DNA of 64,000 nucleotides, from the NCBI GenBank assembly GCA_013349285.1, contig DUZU01000005.1, positions 19,772 to 83,771 on the forward strand, in the 5' to 3' direction. The stretch is from Deltaproteobacteria bacterium. Lineage in GTDB: Bacteria > Desulfobacterota > Desulfobulbia > Desulfobulbales > Desulfurivibrionaceae. Made by a program: the position numbers and the translations under genes. Under the pieces are notes generated by a model. That model worked only from the letters and a program-made list of their open reading frames with translations. It did no database searches and had not been told where the DNA came from. Shown piece after piece: positions 42,575 to 60,429 of this stretch (within the stretch, counting starts at the first letter, position 1; every line of letters starts with the position of its first letter).

Positions 42575-45214
42575 GTGAAAAGATTGAAGAGCTTTTTTCT
42601 GTATTTATTTTTTCTGGCCGGGCTACCTTTATCCGCGATGGCTGCTGACCATGGCGGGGCTGACTGGGCCTATAGCGGCGCGGCCGGCCCTGCGCATTGG
42701 GGGGATTTGAGCCAGGAGTATGCTCTCTGCAGCACCGGGCTCAATCAATCCCCGATTGATATCGTGCAAACCGTTAGAAAAGATTTAGGTCCCCTTGTCT
42801 TTGCCTATCAAAGCGCCCCCTTGAGTGTGGTTAACAACGGGCATGCCATTCAGGCAAATCATAAGGCAGGCAGTTTCATCAAGGTGCAGGGCAAGCTTTA
42901 CAAGCTTTTGCAGTATCATTTCCATAGTCCCAGTGAAAACACCCATCGCGGTAAACCCTACGACATGGAGTTGCATCTGGTGCACAAGAGTGAGCAAGGG
43001 GAGCTTGCGGTGGTCGGGGTATTTATGCGGCAAGGTGCGGCCAATCAGCTGGTTCAGACCTTGTGGGACAATCTGAATCCCAAGGTTGCGCAATCGCGTA
43101 ACCTTCCCCATCTTCTTGTTAATCCAGTGGATTTGCTGCCATATAACGGCTCATATTATCATTTTAAAGGTTCTCTCACCACGCCGCCATGTTCGCAGGA
43201 TGTGCAGTGGTATCTGCTCAAAGACTCGATCGAGGTCTCGGCCGCCCAGATTGAAAAATTTGTGGGAATTATCGGCCACAATGCCCGTCCGGTTAATCCC
43301 CTCAACGGCAGAGAGATTGTCGAGGTTAGTCAGGGGAAGATTATCAATGCCGGTGTTGTTGTAACTAATGATCATGGCAATAGCGGTCATGGTGGTGTCG
43401 CTCAAGGCCATGTTGTTGCTGTTGCCGCTGCCGGGCACGGCAATAGCAATGTGGCTCATGCCTCGTTTGAGTCCGGCAAGGTAACTATCAAAAAGGAAAA
43501 AAGTCACGCAAAAGCCGAGTCGCGCAAAAGCGTATTCCATGCGGACGAACGTACTTCCGTGCATCAACAAGGAGTTCCGATTTGGTTCGTGTTGGCGGCT
43601 TTGGTGGTTTTAGGTGTTTTGGGGGTAATTTTTTTTAAAGGAGACAATATTATGATGTTCAGCAAAATGAAGGTAGGGGCCAGGATCGGCTTGATCATCT
43701 GTAGTTTGTTGGCATTGCTGATGGTGGTCGCCGGAATAAGTATTTCCAAGATGTCGAATATCGGCAACGAGCTCAAGCAGATCGCCGAAGAGGATATTCC
43801 GCTTACTGATTCGATTTGTAATATCGGTAATCATCAGTTGGAGATCGCTGTTTTGTTTGAACGCGGCTTTCGCCTTGGTGAAAAGGGCGATGTGGCCGGC
43901 ATGCAGCAATTATTAGCCGAGATCGACAAAAACGGTGAATCTGTTGTCGATTTGATTGGCGAAGCCCAAAAGATTGCAGAGGAAGGATTACACGCCGCTA
44001 ATAATGATAATGATCGTCGTGAGTTTGAAGGGGTGCTGACCCAACTTAAGACCATTGTCAAAGAGCATGATCAGGTCGAGGAACATGTCAAGAGCGTATT
44101 CGAGACCATTGCCCAGGGTAATCTGCATGAGGCGGAAGTGCTAGGTGAAAAGGTTGAGGTAGAGGCCGATGATGTGGATAAGGCTATCGCGGTTCTTCTT
44201 GAAGAGATCCAAAAGTTTACCGAAGCTGCGGGGCAAAGGGCTGAAGGTATTGAGGCTTCAGCCTTCAATTTGATTGTTGCGAGCACTATTGCCGCGCTCA
44301 TTATCGGGCTTGGTCTCGGCATAATGGTAAATCGCAGTATTGCCTTTGCCCTTAACAATGTGAAAGTCATCTCCGACAATGTTGCCGCCGCCAGTCTGCA
44401 GTTAAGTTCCACCGCCGAGGAGCTTTCCCAAGGCGCCAGTGAGCAGGCCGCCTCGGTTGAGGAATCTTCCGCCTCGGTGGAGCAGATGGCTGCCACCATT
44501 AAACAAAATACCGATAATGCCTTGCAGACCGAACAGATAGCCATGCACACCGCCGGTGATGCCGAGGAAAGCGGCCAGGCGGTGCAGTCCACCGTGGCGG
44601 CGATGAATAATATCGCCGGTAAGATCTCGATTATTGAAGAGATCGCCCGACAGACCAACCTCCTGGCTTTAAATGCCGCGATCGAGGCGGCCCGGGCCGG
44701 GGAGCACGGCAAGGGCTTTGCCGTGGTTGCTGCCGAGGTGAGAAAGCTGGCCGAAAGAAGCCAGAAGGCGGCGGCGGAGATCAGTGAATTATCCTCTTCA
44801 AGTGTCGATGTAGCTGATAAGGCCGGGAAAATGCTGAGTAAAATAGTGCCGGATATCCAGAAAACAGCCACCTTGGTTCAGGAGATCAGTGCCGCGAGCC
44901 GTGAGCAGACCGCGGGTACCGAACAGATCAACGAAGGGATGCAGCAGCTTGATACGGTTGTTCAGCAAAATTCCAGCGCCTCGGAAGAAATGGCCGCCAC
45001 CGCCGAAGAGCTTTCCGCCCAGGCGGAAGAGTTGCAGTCGGTGATTGCCTCGCTGATCAGCTCCGGGGGGGCAGCCTTTGCCGCGCCCAGAACTCCTAGA
45101 AAAACCGGCGTAATTCATAAGCCGGTGGTAGAGAAAAAAACCGGAGCTAAGTTGCTGTTGGGAAAGGCCAAACCCGTCCATGATAAGCTGGATGATGATT
45201 TCGAGCGTTTTTAA
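42575..45214 (+). CDS. alpha-carbonic anhydrase fused in frame to a methyl-accepting chemotaxis protein (879 aa)
   Basis: GTG at 42575 with a GGAGGG SD, followed by a signal peptide. CA hallmarks: QSPIDI, QYHFHSP, ELHLVH and SLTTPPC. Then a His-rich linker, TM, TM, a helical periplasmic domain, TM, and the MCP hairpin [35 protein letters not shown]. No stop codon until 45214. Confidence 0.8.
43629..43636. repeat. T8 homopolymer at the CA/MCP junction
   Basis: The junction reads gta att ttt ttt aaa gga gac aat att atg. T9 would give ...FFF-TAA. T7 would give ...IFLKETIL-TGA overlapping the MCP ATG. Confidence 0.95.
43652..45214 (+). CDS. methyl-accepting chemotaxis protein from an internal start
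   Basis: ATG at 43652 is preceded by AAAGGAGA (43637-43644). The 520-aa product has the standard TM / periplasmic 4-helix / TM / signalling-domain layout. Confidence 0.5.
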
Positions 45215-45236
45215 GGTCGAAACGCCCGTTTTTTTT
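45205..45236 (+). terminator. weak hairpin + T8 (possible attenuator between receptor and cheW)
   Basis: Stem gcgttt / aaacgc (6 bp, A/T-rich) with a 9-nt loop, then ccg and a T8 run. Confidence 0.4.
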
Positions 45237-45298
45237 AGGGTAAAGGGAGCGGCGGGCACTTCTGCTGGGTATTGGATTATATTTTTAAGGTGAAAATC

Positions 45299-45835
45299 AT
45301 GACAAAGGTCGAAGAAAAAGGCGAGCTTGTTGCGCAGTACTTGAGTTTCATCCTGCGCGAGGAGAATTTTGCCATTGAAATCTCAAAGGTCAGAGAGGTG
45401 CTGGATGTGACGGTGCTCACCAAAATTCCGCGGATGCCAGAATATTTAAGCGGGGTTATTAATTTGCGGGGCAACGTGGTGCCGGTGATGGATCTTGGTT
45501 TGAAGCTTGGGATGACGGGCATAGAGCAAACCCATAATACCTGTATCATGATTGTCGAGCTTGAGGTTGAAGGGGAAACAGTCGATATGGGGTTGTTGAC
45601 CGATTCGGTGCAGATGGTCATAGACCTGCGTAATGACGATATCGAAGCGGTGCCTAAGATGGGAACCGGGATTGATACTGAATTCATCAAGGGCATGGGC
45701 CGCCAGGATGAAAAATTTCTCATTATTCTTGATATTGACAAGGTTCTTGCCAAAGAAGGGCGTGCGGTATTGCAGGATAACAGCGATGAGATAATTGGTG
45801 CAGAGCAGGCTGAAGCGGTTACGGCCACCGCATAG
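45299..45835 (+). CDS. cheW: chemotaxis coupling protein CheW
   Basis: ATG at 45299 with an AAGGTG SD. Single CheW-like domain (FAIEISKVREV, INLRGNVVPVMDL, ILDIDKV). Confidence 0.9.
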   Translation: MTKVEEKGELVAQYLSFILREENFAIEISKVREVLDVTVLTKIPRMPEYLSGVINLRGNVVPVMDLGLKLGMTGIEQTHNTCIMIVELEVEGETVDMGLLTDSVQMVIDLRNDDIEAVPKMGTGIDTEFIKGMGRQDEKFLIILDIDKVLAKEGRAVLQDNSDEIIGAEQAEAVTATA

Positions 45836-45896
45836 ATATCATCGTCTATGTGAGTTGGAGGAAGAGCAAAAGCGTAGATGGTGCCAAGGGTGAAGC

Positions 45897-48062
45897 ATGG
45901 GTAACAAAGAATATGTTGCGATCTTTCGCGAGGAGACCGCAGAGCTTCTGGATGAAATAGAAAGTTCTTTGCTTGAGCTTGAAAAAGACCCGAGCGATCT
46001 GATGATAGTCGGCCGAATTTTTCGGGCAATGCATACGATCAAGGGGTCAGGCGCGATGTTTGGTTTTGACGCCATCGCCGACTTTACTCATCATTTTGAA
46101 ACCATGCTTGATAAGGTGCGGGACGGTAAGGCTTCGGTCACCAGTGATTTGATAGATTTGACCTTGGCGTCCTGTGATTATATCCATGCCATGCTCGATG
46201 CGGATGGGGAGACGGTCGGCGATAACGTTGATCCGGAGGTTGGTGAGAAGTTGATAGCCTCTCTGCAAAAACTTGTTGGTGGGCATGGCGAAGGTGACGC
46301 CGGAGGGGAAAATTCTCCGCTTGATGATTGTGCAAAAAAATCACCTTCAGGTCAAAGAGCTCCGGTCCAAGATGGTGGGGAGAAAGCATCCGCCAAAGAA
46401 ATTAATGTCCATTACCGTATCAGTTTGTTGCCGACCATGGAATTTTTTTCAGGGGGGAACACTGTCGAGCAACTGATTGATGAGTTGAGCCTGCTCGGTG
46501 AATGTACGGTTTTTCAACATCCGGGCAATAAGGTGGATGGTGGAGCCGGAGATAATAATGATGCCTGGGAAATTTTGCTCACCACTGATCGGGGCACGGA
46601 TGCGGTTGAAGACGTGTTTGTCTTTGCCCGGTCCAGTTGCAATATATCAGTCACCGTGTTGGTGACCGAAGATGAGAATCATTTTGCAGAGCACCAAAAG
46701 CTGGGCGAGATTCTCATTGCCAGAGGAGATATCTCCCCGGACGATCTCAGCCGGGTTCTTGCCAAGCAAAAGCGTATCGGAGATCTCCTGGTTGAAGAAC
46801 ATCTGGTTTCCCGCTCCAAGGTTGATGCCGCGTTGGTCGAACAACAAATGTTGCAGCAAGCCTCGGCCAAGGTGGGGCAAACGAAAACCGCGGACAGTAT
46901 CCGGGTTGCGGCGGAAAAACTAGATCAACTTATCAATCTGGTGGGAGAGTTGGTGGTGAATCAAGCTCGATTGACCCAGGTATCTTCCAAGTATGACGAT
47001 CCAGGGCTGGTGGAGCCGGTGGAAGAGGTGGAGCGGCTTACCGCCGAGTTGCGCGACTGTGTTCTTAATATCAGAATGTTGCCCATCGGAACAACCTTTG
47101 CCCGTTTCAAACGGTTGGTCAGAGATTTATCGGCCGAGCTCGGCAAGGAGGTGGTTTTGGTGACTGAAGGCGGTGAAACCGAGCTTGATAAGAACGTTAT
47201 TGATCAACTCGGGGAGCCGATGATTCACCTGATCCGTAACTGTATTGACCATGGCATGGAAACTCCCGCCGACAGAGAGGCCAAAGGTAAGCCGCGCAAG
47301 GGGACGGTTCGCTTGTCGGCTGAACATGCCGGGGCAAATGTGGTAATTTCGGTAACCGATGACGGCAAGGGTCTTGATGTGGAGAAGATTCTTCAGAAAG
47401 GGATTGAGAAAGGCTTGGTCAGGGCCGGCGAAGATCTAAGCCAAAAAGAGATATTCAATTCTATTTTCATGCCGGGCCTGTCAACCGCCGCGACCGTTTC
47501 CAGCGTCTCCGGGCGCGGAGTCGGCATGGATGTGGTCAAGACCACCATCGAGCGGCTCAAGGGTTCTGTTTGTGTGGCGGAAAGCGTTAAAAATAAAGGG
47601 ACAACCATCACCATAACCTTGCCGCTGACCTTGGCCATTATCGACGGGTTGCTGGTTTTGGTTGAAGATACCTACTTGGTTCTGCCCCTGACGCAGGTGG
47701 AGGAGTGTGTCGAGCTTACCAAGGAGGATATAGATCATTTCCATGATCGTCGGATGATTCCGGTGCGGGATCAGTTGGTGCCCTATGTGCGGCTCCGTGA
47801 TTTTTTTGCAATACCCGGAAAACGGCCGGAGATTGAACAAATGGTTATTGTGATGGTTAACGGAGAGCGGTTCGGTCTGGTTCTCGACGATGTTATCGGT
47901 GAACATCAGACGGTGTTGAAGTCCTTGGGCTGGGTTTACCGGAATGCCATAGGGTTGTCAGGATCGACGGTGCTGGGAAATGGTGAAGTTGCCTTGATTA
48001 TCGATGTGCCCGATATTATGAAGGTTGCGCAAAAAGAAGAGAAAGACGTTTTTGCAGACTGA
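45897..48062 (+). CDS. cheA: chemotaxis histidine kinase CheA
   Basis: 721 aa. HPt box FRAMHTIKGSGAMFGF, a dimerisation region, the HATPase domain (HLIRNCIDHG, DDGKGL, GRGVGMD) and a C-terminal CheW-like domain. Confidence 0.95.
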   Translation: MGNKEYVAIFREETAELLDEIESSLLELEKDPSDLMIVGRIFRAMHTIKGSGAMFGFDAIADFTHHFETMLDKVRDGKASVTSDLIDLTLASCDYIHAMLDADGETVGDNVDPEVGEKLIASLQKLVGGHGEGDAGGENSPLDDCAKKSPSGQRAPVQDGGEKASAKEINVHYRISLLPTMEFFSGGNTVEQLIDELSLLGECTVFQHPGNKVDGGAGDNNDAWEILLTTDRGTDAVEDVFVFARSSCNISVTVLVTEDENHFAEHQKLGEILIARGDISPDDLSRVLAKQKRIGDLLVEEHLVSRSKVDAALVEQQMLQQASAKVGQTKTADSIRVAAEKLDQLINLVGELVVNQARLTQVSSKYDDPGLVEPVEEVERLTAELRDCVLNIRMLPIGTTFARFKRLVRDLSAELGKEVVLVTEGGETELDKNVIDQLGEPMIHLIRNCIDHGMETPADREAKGKPRKGTVRLSAEHAGANVVISVTDDGKGLDVEKILQKGIEKGLVRAGEDLSQKEIFNSIFMPGLSTAATVSSVSGRGVGMDVVKTTIERLKGSVCVAESVKNKGTTITITLPLTLAIIDGLLVLVEDTYLVLPLTQVEECVELTKEDIDHFHDRRMIPVRDQLVPYVRLRDFFAIPGKRPEIEQMVIVMVNGERFGLVLDDVIGEHQTVLKSLGWVYRNAIGLSGSTVLGNGEVALIIDVPDIMKVAQKEEKDVFAD

Positions 48063-48131
48063 TCTTGGGTTTTACTTATTGCCCGGGCGTGGAAAAATTT
48101 TCAAACGATACTAACGAGAAGAGTTTTTTCT

Positions 48132-49010
48132 TTGACGAAAAAAGTGGCTGTTCATATGAGTGATGGGTCAATTCAGCCTGTTTTAACAGATCGTGAATTT
48201 AAAAAAATAAGCGCGTTTGTGTATGATGTCTGCGGCATTAAACTCCCTCCCATCAAAAAAACCATGCTTTCCGCACGATTGCAAAAAAGATTGCGACAGT
48301 TGCGAATAACTAGTTTCTCCGATTACTTCTCCTATGTCCTGAGTCCAGAAGGGCGGGCGCATGAGTTGCCCTTGATGATTGATGTGGTCAGTACCAACAA
48401 AACTGATTTTTTCAGGGAGGCTAAACATTTTGATGTGCTCACTACAAGGGTCTTGCCTGATTTTGTAAAAAGATTTGCCCAAGGCAACCGAAAGCTTCTC
48501 AGGGTATGGAGCGCAGGGTGCTCCAGCGGGGAGGAGCCTTACACCTTGGCCATGGTGTTGGATGATTTTTTCTCCAAGGTGGCCGGCATTGATTTTTCTA
48601 TCTTGGCCACCGATATCTGTACGGAAGTTCTGGCCAAGGCTGAGAAGGCGGTCTACCATGACGCCGGTCTGGAGCCAATTCCCACTCGCTTTCGCTATAA
48701 GTATTTGATGCGGGGAAAAGGGCAACAGAAAGGCTATCATCGGGTGGTGCCGGAGTTGCGCCGCAAGGTGAGTTTTCAACGACTTAATTTCATGGATAAA
48801 TGTTTTGCCATTGATCATAAAATGGACATAATTTTTTGTCGTAACGTGATTATCTATTTTGATAAAAAAACCCAGGCTGATCTCTTTGCTAAATTTCGTG
48901 AGCAATTTATGGCTTATGGCTATTTGTTTATCGGTCATTCCGAGTCTCTTGAAGGGCCGGCCGGCCAGATGGAAAGGGTAGCTTCAGCTGTATACAAGTG
49001 TGTTAAATGA
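48132..49010 (+). CDS. cheR: chemotaxis protein methyltransferase CheR
   Basis: N-terminal helical domain plus a SAM-binding fold (RVWSAGCSSGEEPYTLAM, IFCRNVIIYF). The start is ambiguous (TTG 48132 or ATG 48156). Confidence 0.9.
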   Translation: MTKKVAVHMSDGSIQPVLTDREFKKISAFVYDVCGIKLPPIKKTMLSARLQKRLRQLRITSFSDYFSYVLSPEGRAHELPLMIDVVSTNKTDFFREAKHFDVLTTRVLPDFVKRFAQGNRKLLRVWSAGCSSGEEPYTLAMVLDDFFSKVAGIDFSILATDICTEVLAKAEKAVYHDAGLEPIPTRFRYKYLMRGKGQQKGYHRVVPELRRKVSFQRLNFMDKCFAIDHKMDIIFCRNVIIYFDKKTQADLFAKFREQFMAYGYLFIGHSESLEGPAGQMERVASAVYKCVK

Positions 49011-49510
49011 TGCCGATGCCGGAAAAGGAGTTACCCACGGTTATCCTTGGGCCCGGGGAATTGTTTGTTGCCCGTAAGCCCACTATTATAACCACGATTT
49101 TAGGCTCTTGCGTTGCGGTGTGCCTCTATTGCCCCCAGCATCGGATTGGCGCGATGTGTCATGGTGTGTTGCCGAGATTCGGCAAGCAGTTTGAAAATGA
49201 TAGTTTTCGCTTTGTGGTCAGCTCTATTCGGCATATGGTGGAGGTCATGGCCAACGGGAAAAAACATTGTCCTAACAGCGGGTTGGTGGCCAAGGTTTTC
49301 GGTGGGGCGGAGGTGCTGGGTTTTTCTCGTAAGTCGAGCAAGAAAGGCTCCATCGGCGTTCAGAATATTGAGGCGGCTCGAAATTCTTTGAAAGATTTGA
49401 GTGTGTCGATCAAGGTCGAGGAGGTTGGCGGGGTCAATGGTCGGAAGCTGTTTTTTTATTCCCATAGCGGGGAGGTTTACATGAAGCCTATCCCTCGTTC
49501 GATTAAATAA
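49007..49510 (+). CDS. cheD: chemoreceptor glutamine deamidase CheD
   Basis: 167 aa with the active-site Cys context ILGSCVAVCLY. ATGA overlap with the cheR stop. Confidence 0.85.
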   Translation: MMPMPEKELPTVILGPGELFVARKPTIITTILGSCVAVCLYCPQHRIGAMCHGVLPRFGKQFENDSFRFVVSSIRHMVEVMANGKKHCPNSGLVAKVFGGAEVLGFSRKSSKKGSIGVQNIEAARNSLKDLSVSIKVEEVGGVNGRKLFFYSHSGEVYMKPIPRSIK

Positions 49511-49519
49511 AGGGATCCT

Positions 49520-50584
49520 ATGAACCGGAAGATCAGTGTGCTGATTGTTGACGATTCCGCCGTGGTTCGGCAGGTGCTGACCGATACGTTGGAGGCGGAT
49601 CCGCAGATTCGGGTCATGGGCGCTGCCCGGGATCCATTCGTGGCCGCGGATTACATCGAGAAAGAAGTGCCGGACGTTATTGTGCTTGATGTTGAAATGC
49701 CGCGGATGGATGGCCTTACTTTTTTGCACACGATTATGACCCAGCACCCGGTGCCGGTGGTTATGTGTTCGACCTTGACGGAAAAGGGGGCGGAGACGAC
49801 TTTAAAGGCGTTGGAGTACGGGGCCGTCGATATAATCCAAAAACCTAAATTGGGTACCAAGAAGTTTTTGGAGGAATCTCGCATTCGAATCTGTGATGCG
49901 GTTAAGGCGGCGGCCAGGGTCGTGGTCAAGCGGACCGCCGCCGCCCCTGTTCGGCGTGTGGAAAAAAAACTTACCGCCGATGCCGTGCTCGCTCCTCCAT
50001 CGGCTAAGGCAATGGTGCAGACCACGGAACGGGTGGTCGCGGTAGGAGCTTCTACGGGCGGCACAGAAGCTTTGCGGGTTTTTTTGGAGCAATTGCCCCG
50101 GGATTGTTCAGGGGTGGTCATTGTTCAGCATATGCCCGAAGGGTTTACCCGGGCCTTTGCCGCGCGCTTGGACGGCTTGTGTAGTATTAGGGTGAAAGAG
50201 GCCCAGAACGGTGATTCTGTTTTACGCGGGCAAGCGCTCATTGCGCCCGGCAATAAACATATGCTGTTGAAGCGAAGCGGGGCGCGTTATTACGTTGAAA
50301 TAAAAGACGGCCCCTTTGTCTGTCGGCATCGTCCTTCCGTTGATGTCCTTTTTCGATCAACCGCAAGGTACGCCGGCAAGAATGCCATCGGGATCATCAT
50401 GACCGGCATGGGAGATGACGGGGCCAGGGGGATGCTGGAGATGAAGCAGGCAGGGGCCTTTACCATTGCCCAGGATGAGGCGAGCTGCGTGGTGTTCGGT
50501 ATGCCCAAGGAGGCCATTGCCCTTAACGGGGTGGATCAGGTTCTCTCCTTGGAACAGATTGCGCCTAGGATTTCCCGAATGTAA
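49520..50584 (+). CDS. cheB: chemotaxis response regulator protein-glutamate methylesterase CheB
   Basis: REC domain ([17 protein letters not shown]) plus the methylesterase domain (GASTGG, HMP, GMGDDG). Confidence 0.95.
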
Positions 50585-50734
50585 AAAAAATGGTGTCCCT
50601 AAAAAATGAGCCTGTACAAAAGGTGAAGATTATGTACATAATTTTATAAAATATATAATTAATATCAAGACCATCGGTGTATGGCGCTCTTTGCCGCGAG
50701 TGCCCCGCCTTTTTTTTATTCGATAAGGAGAGTT

Positions 50735-52327
50735 ATGGACCTCTTGAAGGACTTTTCTCAGAAGGACATGATCGAGCAGATCATCATCCTTGATGAGATC
50801 AAAGAGACCAAGCAGGTTGAGTTGTTGCCTGAGTTGTTTAATCTGTATGTGAACCCCCTTGGCGACCATGCCGTCAATGAGATGGTTTATCATACCATCT
50901 TTGATTTGCTTGCCGGCCAGGAGCAGAAGATCATTTCAGGTTTTACCAGCAGTTCCAAGGCGGTGCAGATATTATCGGTGCGGCGGGCCGCGGATGGTGG
51001 TTCCGAAACATTAAAAGCCGCTCTGGTCAAACAGCTGGACGGTTCCGAAGATAATGAGCTTATTTCCGAGATCATTCGGGCTCTGGCCCATTTTAAAGAT
51101 CCGGCCCTTATTGATGTCTTTTTGTCATATATCCAGCATGATGACTATGCGGTAGTGGCCTGGGCGCTGAAGGCTTTGGCCAGAATCCATGACCCCAAGG
51201 CCAGGGACGTGGTTATGGGGGTGGTGTCGTCCAGCCGGGAGGCCCAGGAGGTCTCCGGCGGATGCGAGTTGCGCACGGCATTGGCCATTGAGAATGTGGC
51301 TGAATTCGGTGATGAGCAGTCTGTTGATTTTCTGATTAAATATATCCATAATTCTAACCCATCTTTTAGGCGGGTGGTTATTTCCGCGCTCGCCACCATG
51401 GATGAAAAAGTACTGCCTGGCTTGGTGGCGTGTCTTGAGTCCGGCGATAAGGACGAAAAGATCATGGCCGCCAATATTATCGGTTGGTCCGGCCATAAAA
51501 AAGGCGCCGATATTCTCGTTTCCTTTCTCGATGAGGCAGAAGAACTTAATCTGAAATTTGCAATTTATGAGGCCCTGGGTCGGATTAATTCTATGCGTAG
51601 TATCGTGGGGTTGACCGACGGCCTTGATGAAAAGGACGAGTTGGTTTTGATTGCGGTGGTGACCGGTCTTGATCATCTTTGCAATCCAGGGGTGGTTAAG
51701 ATGTTCAACGATGTTCTTGTTCAGGGAGACGACAAGAGCGCCCGCATATTAAAGACCATCGTCACCTCCCATGCCAGGAAACTTTTTGCCGAACTTTACC
51801 AGGCAGGTCAGCATGCGCCAAAAATGATCCAGGCGATCACCGCTTCCGGCGATCCTGAGGCGATGGCCGTCTTCCGGGCCGAACTTGAGGGAATGACCGG
51901 TGAGCAGGCTGCCCAGGATGCGCAAAGGTTGAGCGGGGCTACCGGGGCGGGTTCTACCAAAGAAAAAAGGATTTTGGCCGCCGATGACTCAAAGGCCATG
52001 CTTTTCTTTTACAAAAGCGTGGCCGCCGATCTCGGCATGGAACTGGTCACCGTGGAAGACGGCAAGCAGGCCTTTGACTTTTTGAAGGCAGACGACAAGT
52101 TCGATCTGATCATCAGTGATATGAACATGCCCAATATGGATGGCATTGAATTGACCCGTGAGATTAGGAAGCGTTCCGAATGGGCGGGGTTGCCGATCCT
52201 TATGGCCACCACCGAGTCGGAAAACAGCCAGGCCGAGCTTGCCACCAAGGCCGGAGTCAACGATTTCATTACCAAGCCCTTTTCCAAGGATGATTTCAAG
52301 GCCAAGATTGCCCAGATGTTTGGCTGA
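50735..52327 (+). CDS. HEAT-repeat protein with C-terminal CheY-like receiver domain
   Basis: ATG at 50735 follows AAGGAGAG. About 400 aa of HEAT/PBS-lyase-type repeats. Then a REC domain (ILAADDS, ISDMNMPNMDG, MATTE, ITKPF). Confidence 0.8.
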   Translation: MDLLKDFSQKDMIEQIIILDEIKETKQVELLPELFNLYVNPLGDHAVNEMVYHTIFDLLAGQEQKIISGFTSSSKAVQILSVRRAADGGSETLKAALVKQLDGSEDNELISEIIRALAHFKDPALIDVFLSYIQHDDYAVVAWALKALARIHDPKARDVVMGVVSSSREAQEVSGGCELRTALAIENVAEFGDEQSVDFLIKYIHNSNPSFRRVVISALATMDEKVLPGLVACLESGDKDEKIMAANIIGWSGHKKGADILVSFLDEAEELNLKFAIYEALGRINSMRSIVGLTDGLDEKDELVLIAVVTGLDHLCNPGVVKMFNDVLVQGDDKSARILKTIVTSHARKLFAELYQAGQHAPKMIQAITASGDPEAMAVFRAELEGMTGEQAAQDAQRLSGATGAGSTKEKRILAADDSKAMLFFYKSVAADLGMELVTVEDGKQAFDFLKADDKFDLIISDMNMPNMDGIELTREIRKRSEWAGLPILMATTESENSQAELATKAGVNDFITKPFSKDDFKAKIAQMFG

Positions 52328-52353
52328 GGGACATTTTTGATTATGGAAAGTTT

Positions 52354-52383
52354 AGAGCCTGCTTATTGCAGGCTCTTTTTTTT
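52354..52383 (+). terminator. intrinsic terminator closing the che operon
   Basis: Perfect 9-bp stem agagcctgc / gcaggctct with a 5-nt loop, followed by a T7-8 run. Confidence 0.9.
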
Positions 52384-52577: not shown

Positions 52578-53612
52578 ATGGCCAATTCTTTTGGAATTAC
52601 CGTCAGTCGACATATTATGGACAGCCAGCGGCTCCATCCGGAGGCGACCGGTGAGTTGTCCGGCCTGTTGAGCGAGTTGATCGTTGCTGCAAAAACCATT
52701 TCCGCCGAAGTGAATATGGCCGGGTTGGCCGATATTCTCGGGATGTCCGGTAAAACCAATATTCAGGGCGAAAAGGTAAAGAAGCTGGATGAATTTGCCA
52801 ACAACACCATTAAGCGGCGCATGGCCAGCTGTGGTTATATCTGTGTGATGACCTCGGAGGAAGAGGCGGACATCATCCCGGTGGCCGATGGTTGCGAGGG
52901 CAAGTATACCCTGGCCTTTGATCCTTTGGATGGCTCTTCCAACATCGATGTCAATGTCAGTATCGGCACCATCTTTTCCATCCATCGGCGCAAATCAGCG
53001 GATAAACCCCCGAGTCAGGGTGATGAGGCCGACCTGTTGCAGAAGGGCAGCGCCCAGATTGCGGCGGGTTATATCATCTACGGCTCCTGTACCATGATGG
53101 TTTTTTCTACCGGTGAAGGGGTGCATGGTTTTACCCTGGACCCCAGCGTCGGCGAGTTTTATTTGTCGCACCCGGATATGAAAATTCCGGAGAAGAGCAA
53201 GTATTACAGTGTTAATGAAGGAAACCGCCGTTATTGGGCCGATGGGGTGAGAAGTTATATCGATTATTTGAAAGAGGAAGACAAGGCAACCGGCCGCCCC
53301 TACAGTGCCAGGTATATCGGTTCCCTTGTCTCTGATTTTCACCGCAATCTCATTACCGGCGGGGTTTTTATCTATCCCTGTGACAGTAAGGACCCGACCA
53401 AACCCTATGGCAAGTTGCGCCTGCTCTATGAGGCCGCTCCCCTTGCCTTTATCGTGGAGCAGGCCGGCGGTCGGGCCATCACCGATGACGGGGTGCGGAT
53501 CACCGATATCATCCCCGACTCACTGCACCAGCGGGTGCCCCTGGTTATCGGCAGCAAGCATGACGTGGATATGTTCGAGAAGTTCATGAATGGCAAGAAA
53601 GAGAAGAAATAA
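52578..53612 (+). CDS. fbp: class 1 fructose-1,6-bisphosphatase
   Basis: 344 aa. [11 protein letters not shown] metal site, [13 protein letters not shown] and GGVFIYP motifs. Confidence 0.95.
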
Positions 53613-58932: not shown

Positions 58933-60429
58933 ATGAAGATCTTGGTCGTTGATGACAGTCGTTCCATTCGAAAGGGTTTGCGTCAACAGTTGGAAACAAA
59001 CGGCTTTGAGATTCAAGAAGCAGTTGATGGGCTTGATGCGCTAGGCAAGATCAAAGAGTTTAAGCCGGATTTGGTTACCATGGATATCGATATGCCGGTG
59101 ATGGACGGCTTTAAGGCCACCGCGGCTATACGGGAAACCGAGTTCGGCAAGGAACTGCCCATTATTTTTTTAACCAGTCATGACAGCCTTAAAGAGCGTG
59201 AACATGGGTTTTATCTGGGGGCGGTGGAATTTATTTCCAAGTCATCTCCTGCGCCGTGGCAGGAGGTTGTCATGGCTGTTAATCGCATGTTGCGCTGTCA
59301 GGCCTTGCCGGAAAATTTTACGGTATTAGTGGTGGAGGATAATGACGTCACCCGCAGAATACTGGTCAATATCTTTAGTCAGAACGGGTTGCAGGTGCTG
59401 GAAGCCATCAATGGAAGAGAGGGATTGGCTCTTGCGGAAAAAAATCGGGCTGATATTGATCTGGTTATCACCGATTATATGATGCCGGAGATGAACGGCG
59501 GGGAACTTTGCTTAAAACTGCGTAATAATTTGGGCTTTAGGCATACGCCGATTATTTTTCTGAGCGGGGTTAATGAAAAAAGCTGGATTTTGGAGATGTT
59601 TCGCACCGGGGCAACTGATTACATCATGAAGCCTTTTGTCAAGGAGGAGCTGCTCGCCAGGATAAAGGTTCATATGGAGCAGTGGCAATTGGTCAAGGAG
59701 CTGAACTCCACCGTTGCCGAGTTGGAAAAGATGAACAAGCTCAGGGATGAGTTTGTGGGCATGGCCACCCATGATCTGAAAAATCCACTGAACGGGATTA
59801 TGGGTTTTTCCCACCTGATGAAGCAGGATGGTTCTTTGCCTCAAAAACATCATAAAATGTTAGAGACCATCCATACTTCTTCCGTGCTCATGCTCGATAT
59901 TGTTAACGACATTCTTGCCTTAAGCAAATTGGATGCCCATGATGACGACCCGGTAAGCGAGCCTCTTCAGCTGCTGTCCGTTATCAATACAGCGGTTGCC
60001 GGAATCCAGCAGACTGCTTTTAAGAAAGGCGTTGTTCTTGAGGTTGAGAATCTCTGTTCCTGTGATGCCGTTATTGACGGTAATCGTCATGCCTTTCTTC
60101 GTATTTTGAATAATCTTTTATCAAATGCCATCAAGTTTACCCCGGCCAACGGTAAGGTGAGACTTGTGCTGGGAATGGTTGCGGGGAAGGAAGTCTATGT
60201 CTCGGTCGCCGATACCGGGATCGGTATCCCTGAAAGTATGGTGGATAAACTTTTCGACAGGTTTACCAAGAGCGCCAGGAATGGCACCGACGGTGAGGCG
60301 GGAACCGGGCTGGGACTTGCTATTACCAAGCGGCTGGTTGAGAAACTGGCCGGCTCTATTGAGGTAATAAGTAAGGAGGGGGAGGGAAGCAGTTTTCGTC
60401 TGACTTTCCCGTTTTCGTCAAAGGCGTAA
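58933..60429 (+). CDS. cytoplasmic hybrid histidine kinase, REC-REC-HisKA-HATPase
   Basis: Two receiver domains (ILVVDDS...MDIDMP and VLVVEDN...ITDYMMPEMNG). H-box MATHDLKNPL. N, G1 and G2 boxes (LSNAIKF, DTGIGI, GTGLGL). No TM or sensor domain. Confidence 0.9.
   Translation: MKILVVDDSRSIRKGLRQQLETNGFEIQEAVDGLDALGKIKEFKPDLVTMDIDMPVMDGFKATAAIRETEFGKELPIIFLTSHDSLKEREHGFYLGAVEFISKSSPAPWQEVVMAVNRMLRCQALPENFTVLVVEDNDVTRRILVNIFSQNGLQVLEAINGREGLALAEKNRADIDLVITDYMMPEMNGGELCLKLRNNLGFRHTPIIFLSGVNEKSWILEMFRTGATDYIMKPFVKEELLARIKVHMEQWQLVKELNSTVAELEKMNKLRDEFVGMATHDLKNPLNGIMGFSHLMKQDGSLPQKHHKMLETIHTSSVLMLDIVNDILALSKLDAHDDDPVSEPLQLLSVINTAVAGIQQTAFKKGVVLEVENLCSCDAVIDGNRHAFLRILNNLLSNAIKFTPANGKVRLVLGMVAGKEVYVSVADTGIGIPESMVDKLFDRFTKSARNGTDGEAGTGLGLAITKRLVEKLAGSIEVISKEGEGSSFRLTFPFSSKA

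Follow-up and report, generated by a model that had tools for sequence, protein, structure and literature searches.

A 34H-type chemosensory cluster of Desulfobulbales in which CheA is accompanied by a HEAT-repeat receiver protein and no stand-alone CheY

The stretch of DNA analysed here, 64,000 nucleotides (nt) in length and called the window below, comes from a sulfur bacterium, Deltaproteobacteria bacterium (Desulfurivibrionaceae), and carries on its + strand, at 42575-52383, a chemosensory gene cluster whose last gene encodes a protein that joins a HEAT-repeat solenoid to a CheY-type receiver (REC) and is called HEAT-REC in what follows. Seven co-directional + strand genes occupy 42575-52327, each of them with Pfam support (Table 1), and the Pfam matches for MCP, CheW, CheA, CheR, CheB and CheD lie above the curated cut-offs. 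The chemosensory core is complete, with MCP, CheW and CheA together with CheR and CheB, plus CheD, and the arrangement is not a product of chance, because the same gene order recurs in about 40 related loci. The initial annotation of this DNA had given the order as a carbonic anhydrase (CA) receptor fusion (CA-MCP), cheW, cheA without a fused receiver, cheR, cheD, cheB and HEAT-REC, and Pfam bears it out; its coordinates and domain calls all hold, including the 530 amino acids (aa) of HEAT-REC, as does the strong terminator that it placed after this gene, which has a 9-bp GC-rich stem and a T-run. When all six frames of the genome were scanned with PF00072, the receivers of CheB and HEAT-REC and no others were found inside the cluster, and no small receiver open reading frame (ORF), in agreement with the earlier statement that no stand-alone receiver is encoded there. 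Pfam detected no CheZ, CheC or CheX in the cluster, and the annotation of the flanks confirmed that no flagellar genes adjoin it.

Table 1. Genes and features of the chemosensory cluster, in window coordinates
Feature	Position	Strand	Evidence
Alpha-carbonic-anhydrase::4HB::MCP (CA-MCP), 879 aa, class 34H	42575..45214	+	Pfam Carb_anhydrase 4.6e-39, 4HB_MCP, MCPsignal 3.8e-32
CheW coupling protein	45272..45835	+	Pfam CheW 2.8e-34
CheA histidine kinase, 721 aa, without fused receiver	45897..48062	+	Pfam Hpt, H-kinase_dim, HATPase_c, CheW
CheR methyltransferase	48132..49010	+	Pfam CheR 1.5e-59, CheR_N
CheD receptor deamidase	49007..49510	+	Pfam CheD 1.2e-19
CheB methylesterase, N-terminal receiver	49520..50584	+	Pfam CheB_methylest 1.8e-68, Response_reg 6.6e-23
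AT-rich spacer between cheB and HEAT-REC, 150 nt	50585..50734	+	Motif at 50598-50619, CCTAAAAAATGAGCCTGTACAA
HEAT-REC, 530 aa	50735-52327	+	Pfam HEAT_2 3.7e-31, HEAT_PBS 1.8e-07, Response_reg 7e-27
HEAT/PBS-type alpha-solenoid of HEAT-REC, residues 1-405, 26 helices	50735..51949	+	Pfam HEAT_2, HEAT_PBS; AlphaFold2 model
CheY-type receiver of HEAT-REC, residues 411-530	51965..52327	+	Pfam Response_reg 7e-27
Intrinsic terminator closing the operon	52354..52383	+	Hairpin 52354-52376: 9-bp stem, 6 GC pairs, T-run

From the MCP to cheB the genes stand close together, with gaps of 10-70 nt and with the start of cheD overlapping the stop of cheR. CA-MCP starts at a GTG (42575), upstream of which lies the Shine-Dalgarno sequence GGAGGG, and has a signal-peptide-like N-terminus; the true start of CheW is possibly an alternative ATG at 45299. 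HEAT-REC starts at the ATG 50735, with AGGAG upstream, which gives the 530 aa of the protein.

The receiver of HEAT-REC has the features of a CheY-type receiver, namely the acidic pocket, the phospho-acceptor, the T/S and K positions and the (beta-alpha)5 fold. Its conservation was read from 38 aligned HEAT-REC sequences, with residues numbered as in HEAT-REC and the E. coli CheY equivalents given in brackets: D417 and D418 (D12, D13), the phospho-acceptor D462 (D57), N464 (N59, at D+2), E494 (E89, at T+2), F511 (Y106) and the pair K514-P515 (K109-P110) are invariant, and position 492 (T87) is T or S. The full domain is 34% identical to E. coli CheY, the loop reads DMNMPNMDG against DWNMPNMDG in E. 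coli CheY, and Foldseek matches the receiver to CheY structures with template-modelling (TM) scores of 0.88-0.93 and a root-mean-square deviation of 1.2-2 Å. It is not a stand-alone CheY, that is, a single domain of about 120-130 aa, being the C-terminal 120 aa of a protein of 530. Work of Thomas, Brewster and Bourret in 2008 is said to have shown that an N/E pair at D+2/T+2 in CheY accompanies rapid autodephosphorylation, and the same pair in HEAT-REC suggests a fast turnover and signalling at a chemotaxis-like time scale.

The rest of the protein is a solenoid. AlphaFold2, given the family alignment, modelled HEAT-REC at a predicted local distance difference test score (pLDDT) of 91.3 and a predicted TM score (pTM) of 0.84; in the model 26 helices span residues 12-404 and are joined by a brief linker of low confidence (404-407) to the (beta-alpha)5 receiver. 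Tandem HEAT_PBS repeats in Pfam and an alpha-solenoid in Foldseek mark the helical part as PBS-lyase HEAT-like repeats, and its top Foldseek matches are alphaRep proteins, i.e. consensus PBS-HEAT designs; no CheW-like domain was found in HEAT-REC with Pfam. The protein is single-copy in the source genome. An exhaustive search with the HEAT part alone yielded, at E<=1e-30, about 90 clusters represented at 50% identity; the majority of the matches listed there are 520-545 aa long and colinear over positions 1-400, they are for the most part fused proteins of about 530 aa, and beyond these clusters the matches are giant generic HEAT proteins. The names in databases for these proteins are 'response regulator' or 'HEAT repeat domain-containing protein' and nothing else, and HEAT-REC is a sizeable response-regulator family of its own, one branch of which is tied to a Che cluster. 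In a tree of receiver domains the HEAT-REC orthologues and paralogues form one clade (support 98/94), which argues for a single fusion event. The rows nearest to this clade include CheYs from che clusters, that is, from a Leptospira 34H cluster, from locus L046 and from the cluster on contig C1 of the source genome itself, and the group of flagellar-operon CheYs is not nearest, both at a support (83-90) that is weak. Proteins of 220 aa homologous to the N-terminal HEAT part stand alone in one family (f5), where none of the five loci examined is flanked by a full che cluster; in one of the five, L092, cheW and a 34H-like MCP lie at a distance of about 5 kb, and these short proteins were set aside as uninformative.

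The same association is found across the order. Full-length orthologues of HEAT-REC, at 33-79% identity, are present in about 50 species-level genomes of Desulfurivibrionaceae and other Desulfobulbales, with Hydrosulfovibrio ferrireducens and Thiovibrio species among the carriers, of which H. ferrireducens and Thiovibrio frasassiensis are in culture. The gene order in the roughly 40 loci with enough flank is one to three 34H MCPs, CheA and CheW in either order, CheR, CheD where present, CheB and HEAT-REC, and HEAT-REC lies directly 3' of cheB in most of the roughly 50 Desulfobulbales loci. No stand-alone receiver was detected in these related clusters, in which CheW is 60-77% and CheB 72-85% identical to the window proteins. 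Four loci (L032, L035, L037 and L051) keep HEAT-REC where cheD is missing; an obligatory dependence on CheD, which was considered after the HEAT-CheD interaction of Halobacterium, is rejected on their account. The FBPase gene is usually downstream of HEAT-REC in relatives, an adjacency that is missing from L041-L047 and broken in several other loci, and we take it as synteny rather than as a functional link. Presence was counted in 201 genomes sampled evenly across the order, with an orthologue defined by E<1e-90, and 47 of them carry one. All 47 carriers have at least two CheAs, against none to two, mostly one, in family members without the orthologue; therefore the HEAT-REC cluster is an accessory Che system, and in no sampled genome (0/47) is it the sole one. 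The genus g4 gives a similar picture, since its three sampled genomes without HEAT-REC have 0-1 CheA and those with it have 2-5, a pattern consistent with loss of the whole cluster.

Regarding the class of the pathway, the receptor is the most informative component. Aligned with E. coli Tar (36H), CA-MCP is 7 residues shorter in each hairpin arm, which places it in class 34H, and the Leptospira receptor shows the same symmetric 7-residue deletions. It is the sole 34H receptor among the 19 MCPs of the assembly, the other 18 of which align without those gaps. Its C-terminus is the pentapeptide DFERF, and every cluster-encoded receptor of the relatives is likewise 34H and ends in xFERY/F, tails that fit the 34H-specific CheR-tethering pentapeptide xF/YxxF/Y described in Geobacter (PMC2577667). 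Receptors of class 34H are a hallmark of F8 systems, which are classed as flagellar (bioRxiv 10.1101/2022.05.07.491037; PMC8429497) and normally encode their own CheY, as in Rhizobium Che2 (PMC8429497) and Shewanella che2 (PMC9855816). Of these two traits the 34H receptor is found in the window and in all MCPs that the clusters of relatives encode, and the own CheY is absent, the receivers of CheB and HEAT-REC being the only ones. The window CheA scores 380 bits against the CheA of the Leptospira 34H cluster and 303 bits against the F7 CheA of E. coli, which bears on the class of CheA indirectly. By these sequence comparisons the most fitting description of the cluster is that of an F8-like system with the HEAT-REC fusion in the place of CheY.

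The sensory part of the receptor is a more restricted trait. The CA domain (window 42575-43480) keeps the Zn-ligand motifs HFH and ELHLVH, plus LTTPP, and on these motifs looks catalytically intact. Three other species also encode CA-MCP as a single ORF, of 894-905 aa (CA domains at L023:3980-4780, L035:2014-2874 and L051:2089-2937), so that the fusion is found in four species in all, always inside this type of HEAT-REC cluster and at differing positions; the possibility that the T8 tract at the CA/MCP junction is an artefact was rejected in view of these three. The CA-MCP fusion is real and linked to the pathway, yet it is a lineage-specific input and not a defining feature of the pathway.

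From these observations we propose that the cluster is an accessory 34H pathway in which the cognate phospho-acceptors of CheA are CheB and the output-bearing HEAT-REC, a reading that we hold with slightly better than even confidence. Arrays are not shared between receptors of different length classes, and the 34H receptor, here the CA fusion, would form an array of its own with the CheW and CheA of the operon, to which the DFERF tail would tether CheR and CheB. Phosphorylated CheA would then pass its phosphoryl group to the receiver of CheB, for adaptation, and to that of HEAT-REC, which would substitute for the missing CheY. Phosphorylation would in turn alter the binding of the solenoid to a partner protein, in the way that phosphorylated CheY7 of Myxococcus works with Cpc7, and the final target may be the flagellar motor or something else, both of which the proposal allows. 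The initial annotation had named HEAT-REC as the likely phospho-acceptor; that it is the sole receiver besides CheB, in a conserved position and with a complete CheY-type domain, stands, and transfer from CheA to it is a predicted step.

What weighs against this proposal is found in the rest of the genome, in CheA itself, in the spacer upstream of HEAT-REC and in loci where HEAT-REC has other neighbours. The assembly (2.68 Mb in 75 contigs, 89% complete) encodes flagella, with FliM and flagellins, and has a great wealth of signalling genes, with 145 receiver-domain matches, four complete CheAs, 8 CheWs and four copies each of CheR, CheD and CheB. A canonical CheY is present elsewhere, among about 20 single-domain receivers: the one at C1:56467-56847 is 56% identical to E. 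coli CheY and lies in a co-directional run of ORFs, the sizes of which agree with flhA and flhB; a Pfam-confirmed fliM is found at a distance of about 10 kb, at C1:66418. When the Leptospira CheY was searched against the genome, many receivers scored 74-81 bits, which gave no discrimination among them. The cluster might then be an ordinary accessory input to the flagella, its CheA phosphorylating a remote CheY and HEAT-REC being auxiliary, as a sink, an array modulator or a scaffold, like extra CheYs or CheV. Such a role fits the flagellar classification of the F8 systems with which 34H receptors go (bioRxiv 10.1101/2022.05.07.491037; PMC8429497), the E. coli-like CheY among flhA, flhB and fliM on C1, the presence of FliM in 46 of the 47 carriers and the orthologue at locus L039 that stands beside genes for a PilZ-domain and a CheZ-like protein; and since the cluster is without CheZ, CheC and CheX, a sink would be useful. 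In view of the flagellar class, the FliM count, the flagellar-operon CheY and the CheZ-like neighbour, the alternative cellular function (ACF) that the initial annotation had suggested is a possible role and no more. The CheA without REC is unlike typical ACF CheAs, which are marked by a CheA-REC fusion together with an output other than motility, and accessory status does not discriminate in this respect. However, other 34H clusters retain their own CheY, namely those of Leptospira, Shewanella (che2) and Rhizobium (Che2) (PMC9855816, PMC8429497), and this lineage is consistently without one; a conserved solenoid of 400 residues is much structure for a mere sink; and the association with FliM is weak, with 155 of the 201 genomes positive overall and the non-flagellate ones confined to few clades. 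A purely auxiliary HEAT-REC is in our judgement unlikely, while deserving real weight. Room for other partners could also be left by the incomplete assembly together with a second, truncated cheW-cheR-cheB-cheD set (C28:31408-34392, L101), immediately upstream of which the contig breaks off; an additional CheA, a CheY or more 34H receptors might belong to it. The catalytic domain of its CheB is 75% identical to that of the window, and in five relatives, which have one CheB of this type each, the best match to it is the CheB of the HEAT-REC cluster, so the set seems to have been duplicated or acquired in this lineage specifically, with its CheA and receptors missing from the assembly. As to CheA of the window, a PDB sequence search matched P1 and P3-P5 and nothing at the P2 position, which is taken by a conserved alpha/beta domain of about 90 residues with the order beta-alpha-beta-beta-alpha-beta (AlphaFold2 model of residues 168-336, pLDDT 72); Foldseek with residues 168-336 gave no CheA P2, its matches being generic folds of the ferredoxin/PII type (TM about 0.5), and we therefore speak of a domain at the P2 position and avoid the name P2.

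It might also be argued that HEAT-REC is a conserved neighbour, with its own promoter and another histidine kinase, and that the che cluster acts via remote receivers. The spacer between cheB and HEAT-REC, 100-290 nt long in family relatives, contains in close relatives (L005-L027) a motif, AAAAAAAGATTCTAAAAtGGgAaCCTGTgTAATAGTAT, that is conserved over about 38 nt and has TATAAT in several; a diverged and partial copy of it lies at window 50598-50619, followed by AT-rich palindromes, and a consensus scan gave promoter-like matches at 50613-50642. By its sequence the motif may be an internal promoter or operator for separate expression of HEAT-REC. Orthologues with no che genes nearby are known from five loci: HEAT-REC is preceded by genes for a PilZ-domain and a long CheZ-like protein and followed by FBPase in L039, adjoins a small REC gene in L036 and lies among unrelated neighbours in L050 and L053, the fifth locus being L034. 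Distant paralogues (about 545 aa, 25-29% identity) are widespread in other families of Desulfobulbales, one of them lying in a complete genome of 3,851,869 bp, and were outside che clusters in all eight loci examined. Both annotated paralogue loci (L084:9164-14230 and L087:9334-12842; proteins of about 541 aa) place the gene beside that of a Pyr_redox_2 (pyridine-nucleotide-disulfide) oxidoreductase. In L084 the oxidoreductase carries a rhodanese domain too, and a gene for a HisKA histidine kinase follows it, two genes from the paralogue. These paralogues may be fed by classical kinases, and since they are not linked to che genes and one is near a HisKA kinase, the HEAT-REC architecture alone does not imply a CheA partner. 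The downstream FBPase, moreover, is equally syntenic without an obvious functional link. On the other hand, adjacency to cheB persists down to 40-46% identity, with the spacer only 18-19 nt long in L041, L043, L044 and L047; HEAT-REC of L046 lies between two cheA genes; the absence of HEAT-REC in g4 goes with a lower CheA count; and the receiver is CheY-like, unlike the receivers of classical regulators. We regard an independent HEAT-REC as improbable. A last reading gives the operon a more specific task: CA-MCP is the sole 34H receptor of the organism, and therefore the operon would be a dedicated pathway for CO2/bicarbonate or periplasmic pH, with the CheY-HEAT protein acting on a non-flagellar partner, for example a carbon-metabolic or envelope protein. 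The initial annotation had likewise spoken of a single inorganic-carbon-linked receptor, of which the word single remains plausible, with one 34H MCP of 19, and the carbon link is not intrinsic, as other species carry one to three different 34H receptors; we consider a dedicated pathway of this kind improbable. The proposal that CheA addresses CheB and an output-bearing HEAT-REC is the one retained in what follows.

Some further observations on the locus and the genome may be added here. Upstream of the cluster lie a GT2 glycosyltransferase and a biotin-carboxylase cluster, and downstream FBPase (class I), GlnRS and GluRS. A hybrid kinase of 498 aa (REC-REC-HisKA-HATPase) is encoded on the + strand at window 58933-60429, 6.5 kb downstream of the cluster, with FBPase, GlnRS, GluRS and an Era-like GTPase in between, and no tie to the che operon was seen. 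Upstream of the MCP and of HEAT-REC, the consensus scan gave weak sigma-70-like matches at most, and sigma-28 or sigma-54 promoters were dismissed, no convincing match to either being found there by inspection. CheA has a helical insert before P3 (residues 268-316, window 46698-46844) made of tandem 24-residue motifs, KLGEILIARGDISPDDLSRVLAKQ and RIGDLLVEEHLVSRSKVDAALVEQ, which is kept in most orthologous CheAs and missing from those of L041, L043, L047 and Leptospira. By eye these motifs resemble the c-di-GMP-binding motif RLGxxLLxxG..L..L..Q of MshEN/T2SSE_N; this assignment was rejected, as Pfam gave no T2SSE_N at E<=10 and a weak DUF4388 only, and Foldseek gave no MshEN. Elsewhere in the source genome, two further che systems lie side by side at C4:41560-59426, one with 36H receptors ending in EFGKY and with additional Hpt-like segments (52822-53562) ahead of its CheA, the other with a second CheA and an adjacent CheY in a 148-aa frame. 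A protein of 545-553 aa with a split CheZ domain is common to L039 and the source genome (C14:25937-27574), at 53% identity, and is preceded by a small ORF in both, a PilZ-domain protein in L039 and one of about 130 aa in the source genome; the pair occupies L039:7897-9892 and C14:25937-28062, and in L039 it is directly upstream of the HEAT-REC orthologue. The source genome has, in addition, a short CheZ of 211 aa at C7:14851-15486.

What chemosensory pathways control in cases other than a plain delivery of CheY to the flagellar switch has long been a gap in knowledge, and to our knowledge the Che7 system of Myxococcus is the only studied link between CheY and HEAT repeats. In the literature on HEAT-repeat response regulators and on HEAT-CheY fusions in che clusters we found Myxococcus and Halobacterium only, with the two proteins separate, so a HEAT-CheY fusion in a che cluster is apparently undescribed so far. 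A fusion that is family-wide gives independent genomic support for CheY-HEAT coupling as a real and reusable output design, and it does so in another Che class (34H, F8-like) and another phylum than those of Myxococcus Che7. As the phosphorylation site and the effector surface are in one protein, D-to-A and D-to-E variants of HEAT-REC are usable as baits. In the window species the pathway is apparently fed by one CA receptor, which makes it a candidate for CO2/bicarbonate taxis or sensing in sulfur-cycling sediment bacteria. If the reading as a dedicated CO2/bicarbonate or pH pathway with a non-flagellar partner were true, HEAT-REC would be a natural 'Rosetta-stone' fusion that points to signalling from CheY to a HEAT scaffold as a general chemosensory output mode, and no earlier Che pathway would have been linked to the sensing of inorganic carbon via an enzyme-derived sensor domain.

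Among known systems, the nearest by receptor class are the 34H/F8-like clusters, such as R. leguminosarum Che2 and Bradyrhizobium che3 (PMC8429497), S. oneidensis che2 (PMC9855816) and the 'E. coli-like type 2' cluster of Geobacter (PMC2577667). The window cluster shares with them the 34H receptors, the xF/YxxF/Y pentapeptide, CheA, CheW, CheR and CheB, and with those of Shewanella and Leptospira also CheD. The Leptospira cluster (L076/L078/L080) encodes a histidine kinase, REC-HATPase, CheY, STAS, CheA, MCP, CheW, CheD and CheB; its MCP signalling domain is 61-67% and its CheB 65% identical to those of the window, and its CheA is the best match to the window CheA. Unlike the window cluster, these clusters have a stand-alone CheY, and those of Shewanella and Leptospira a STAS antagonist as well, of which the window cluster has neither. 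A che-encoded HEAT_PBS protein is known from Halobacterium salinarum, where OE2401F binds CheD and CheF and is required for motor switching by phosphorylated CheY (PMC2666748); this requirement is an example of a HEAT scaffold placed between CheY and a motility apparatus. OE2401F is archaeal, has no fused receiver and reaches the archaellum via CheF, whereas HEAT-REC is bacterial and fused, and bacteria are without CheF. With CheV (CheW-REC), HEAT-REC shares the design of a che-encoded protein-binding module joined to a phosphorylatable receiver, but it has a HEAT solenoid instead of the CheW domain, and the domain order is reversed.

The closest functional parallel is the Che7 system of Myxococcus xanthus, in which, as far as it is described in PMC11514114 after Darnell et al. 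2014 (J Bacteriol 196:3160), phosphorylated CheY7 acts on a separate HEAT-repeat protein, Cpc7. This system has the soluble 40H receptor Mcp7, a separate CheY and the desaturase gene Des7 (PMC3945109). To the extent of those descriptions, both clusters have CheA without REC, CheW, CheR and CheB, in both a HEAT solenoid of the PBS-lyase-like type, with about 26-27 helices, is coupled to a CheY-type receiver, and both are without a transcription-factor or enzymatic output domain. A HEAT protein encoded within the che cluster, the mark of a Che7-type system, is present here in fused form, and it is likened to Cpc7 by repeat type and helix count. Against these likenesses, the receiver and the HEAT part are fused, the receptor is a transmembrane 34H protein, CheD is present and there is no desaturase gene. 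By analogy, the HEAT-REC pathway would work like the CheY7-Cpc7 pair while not being a member of that system.

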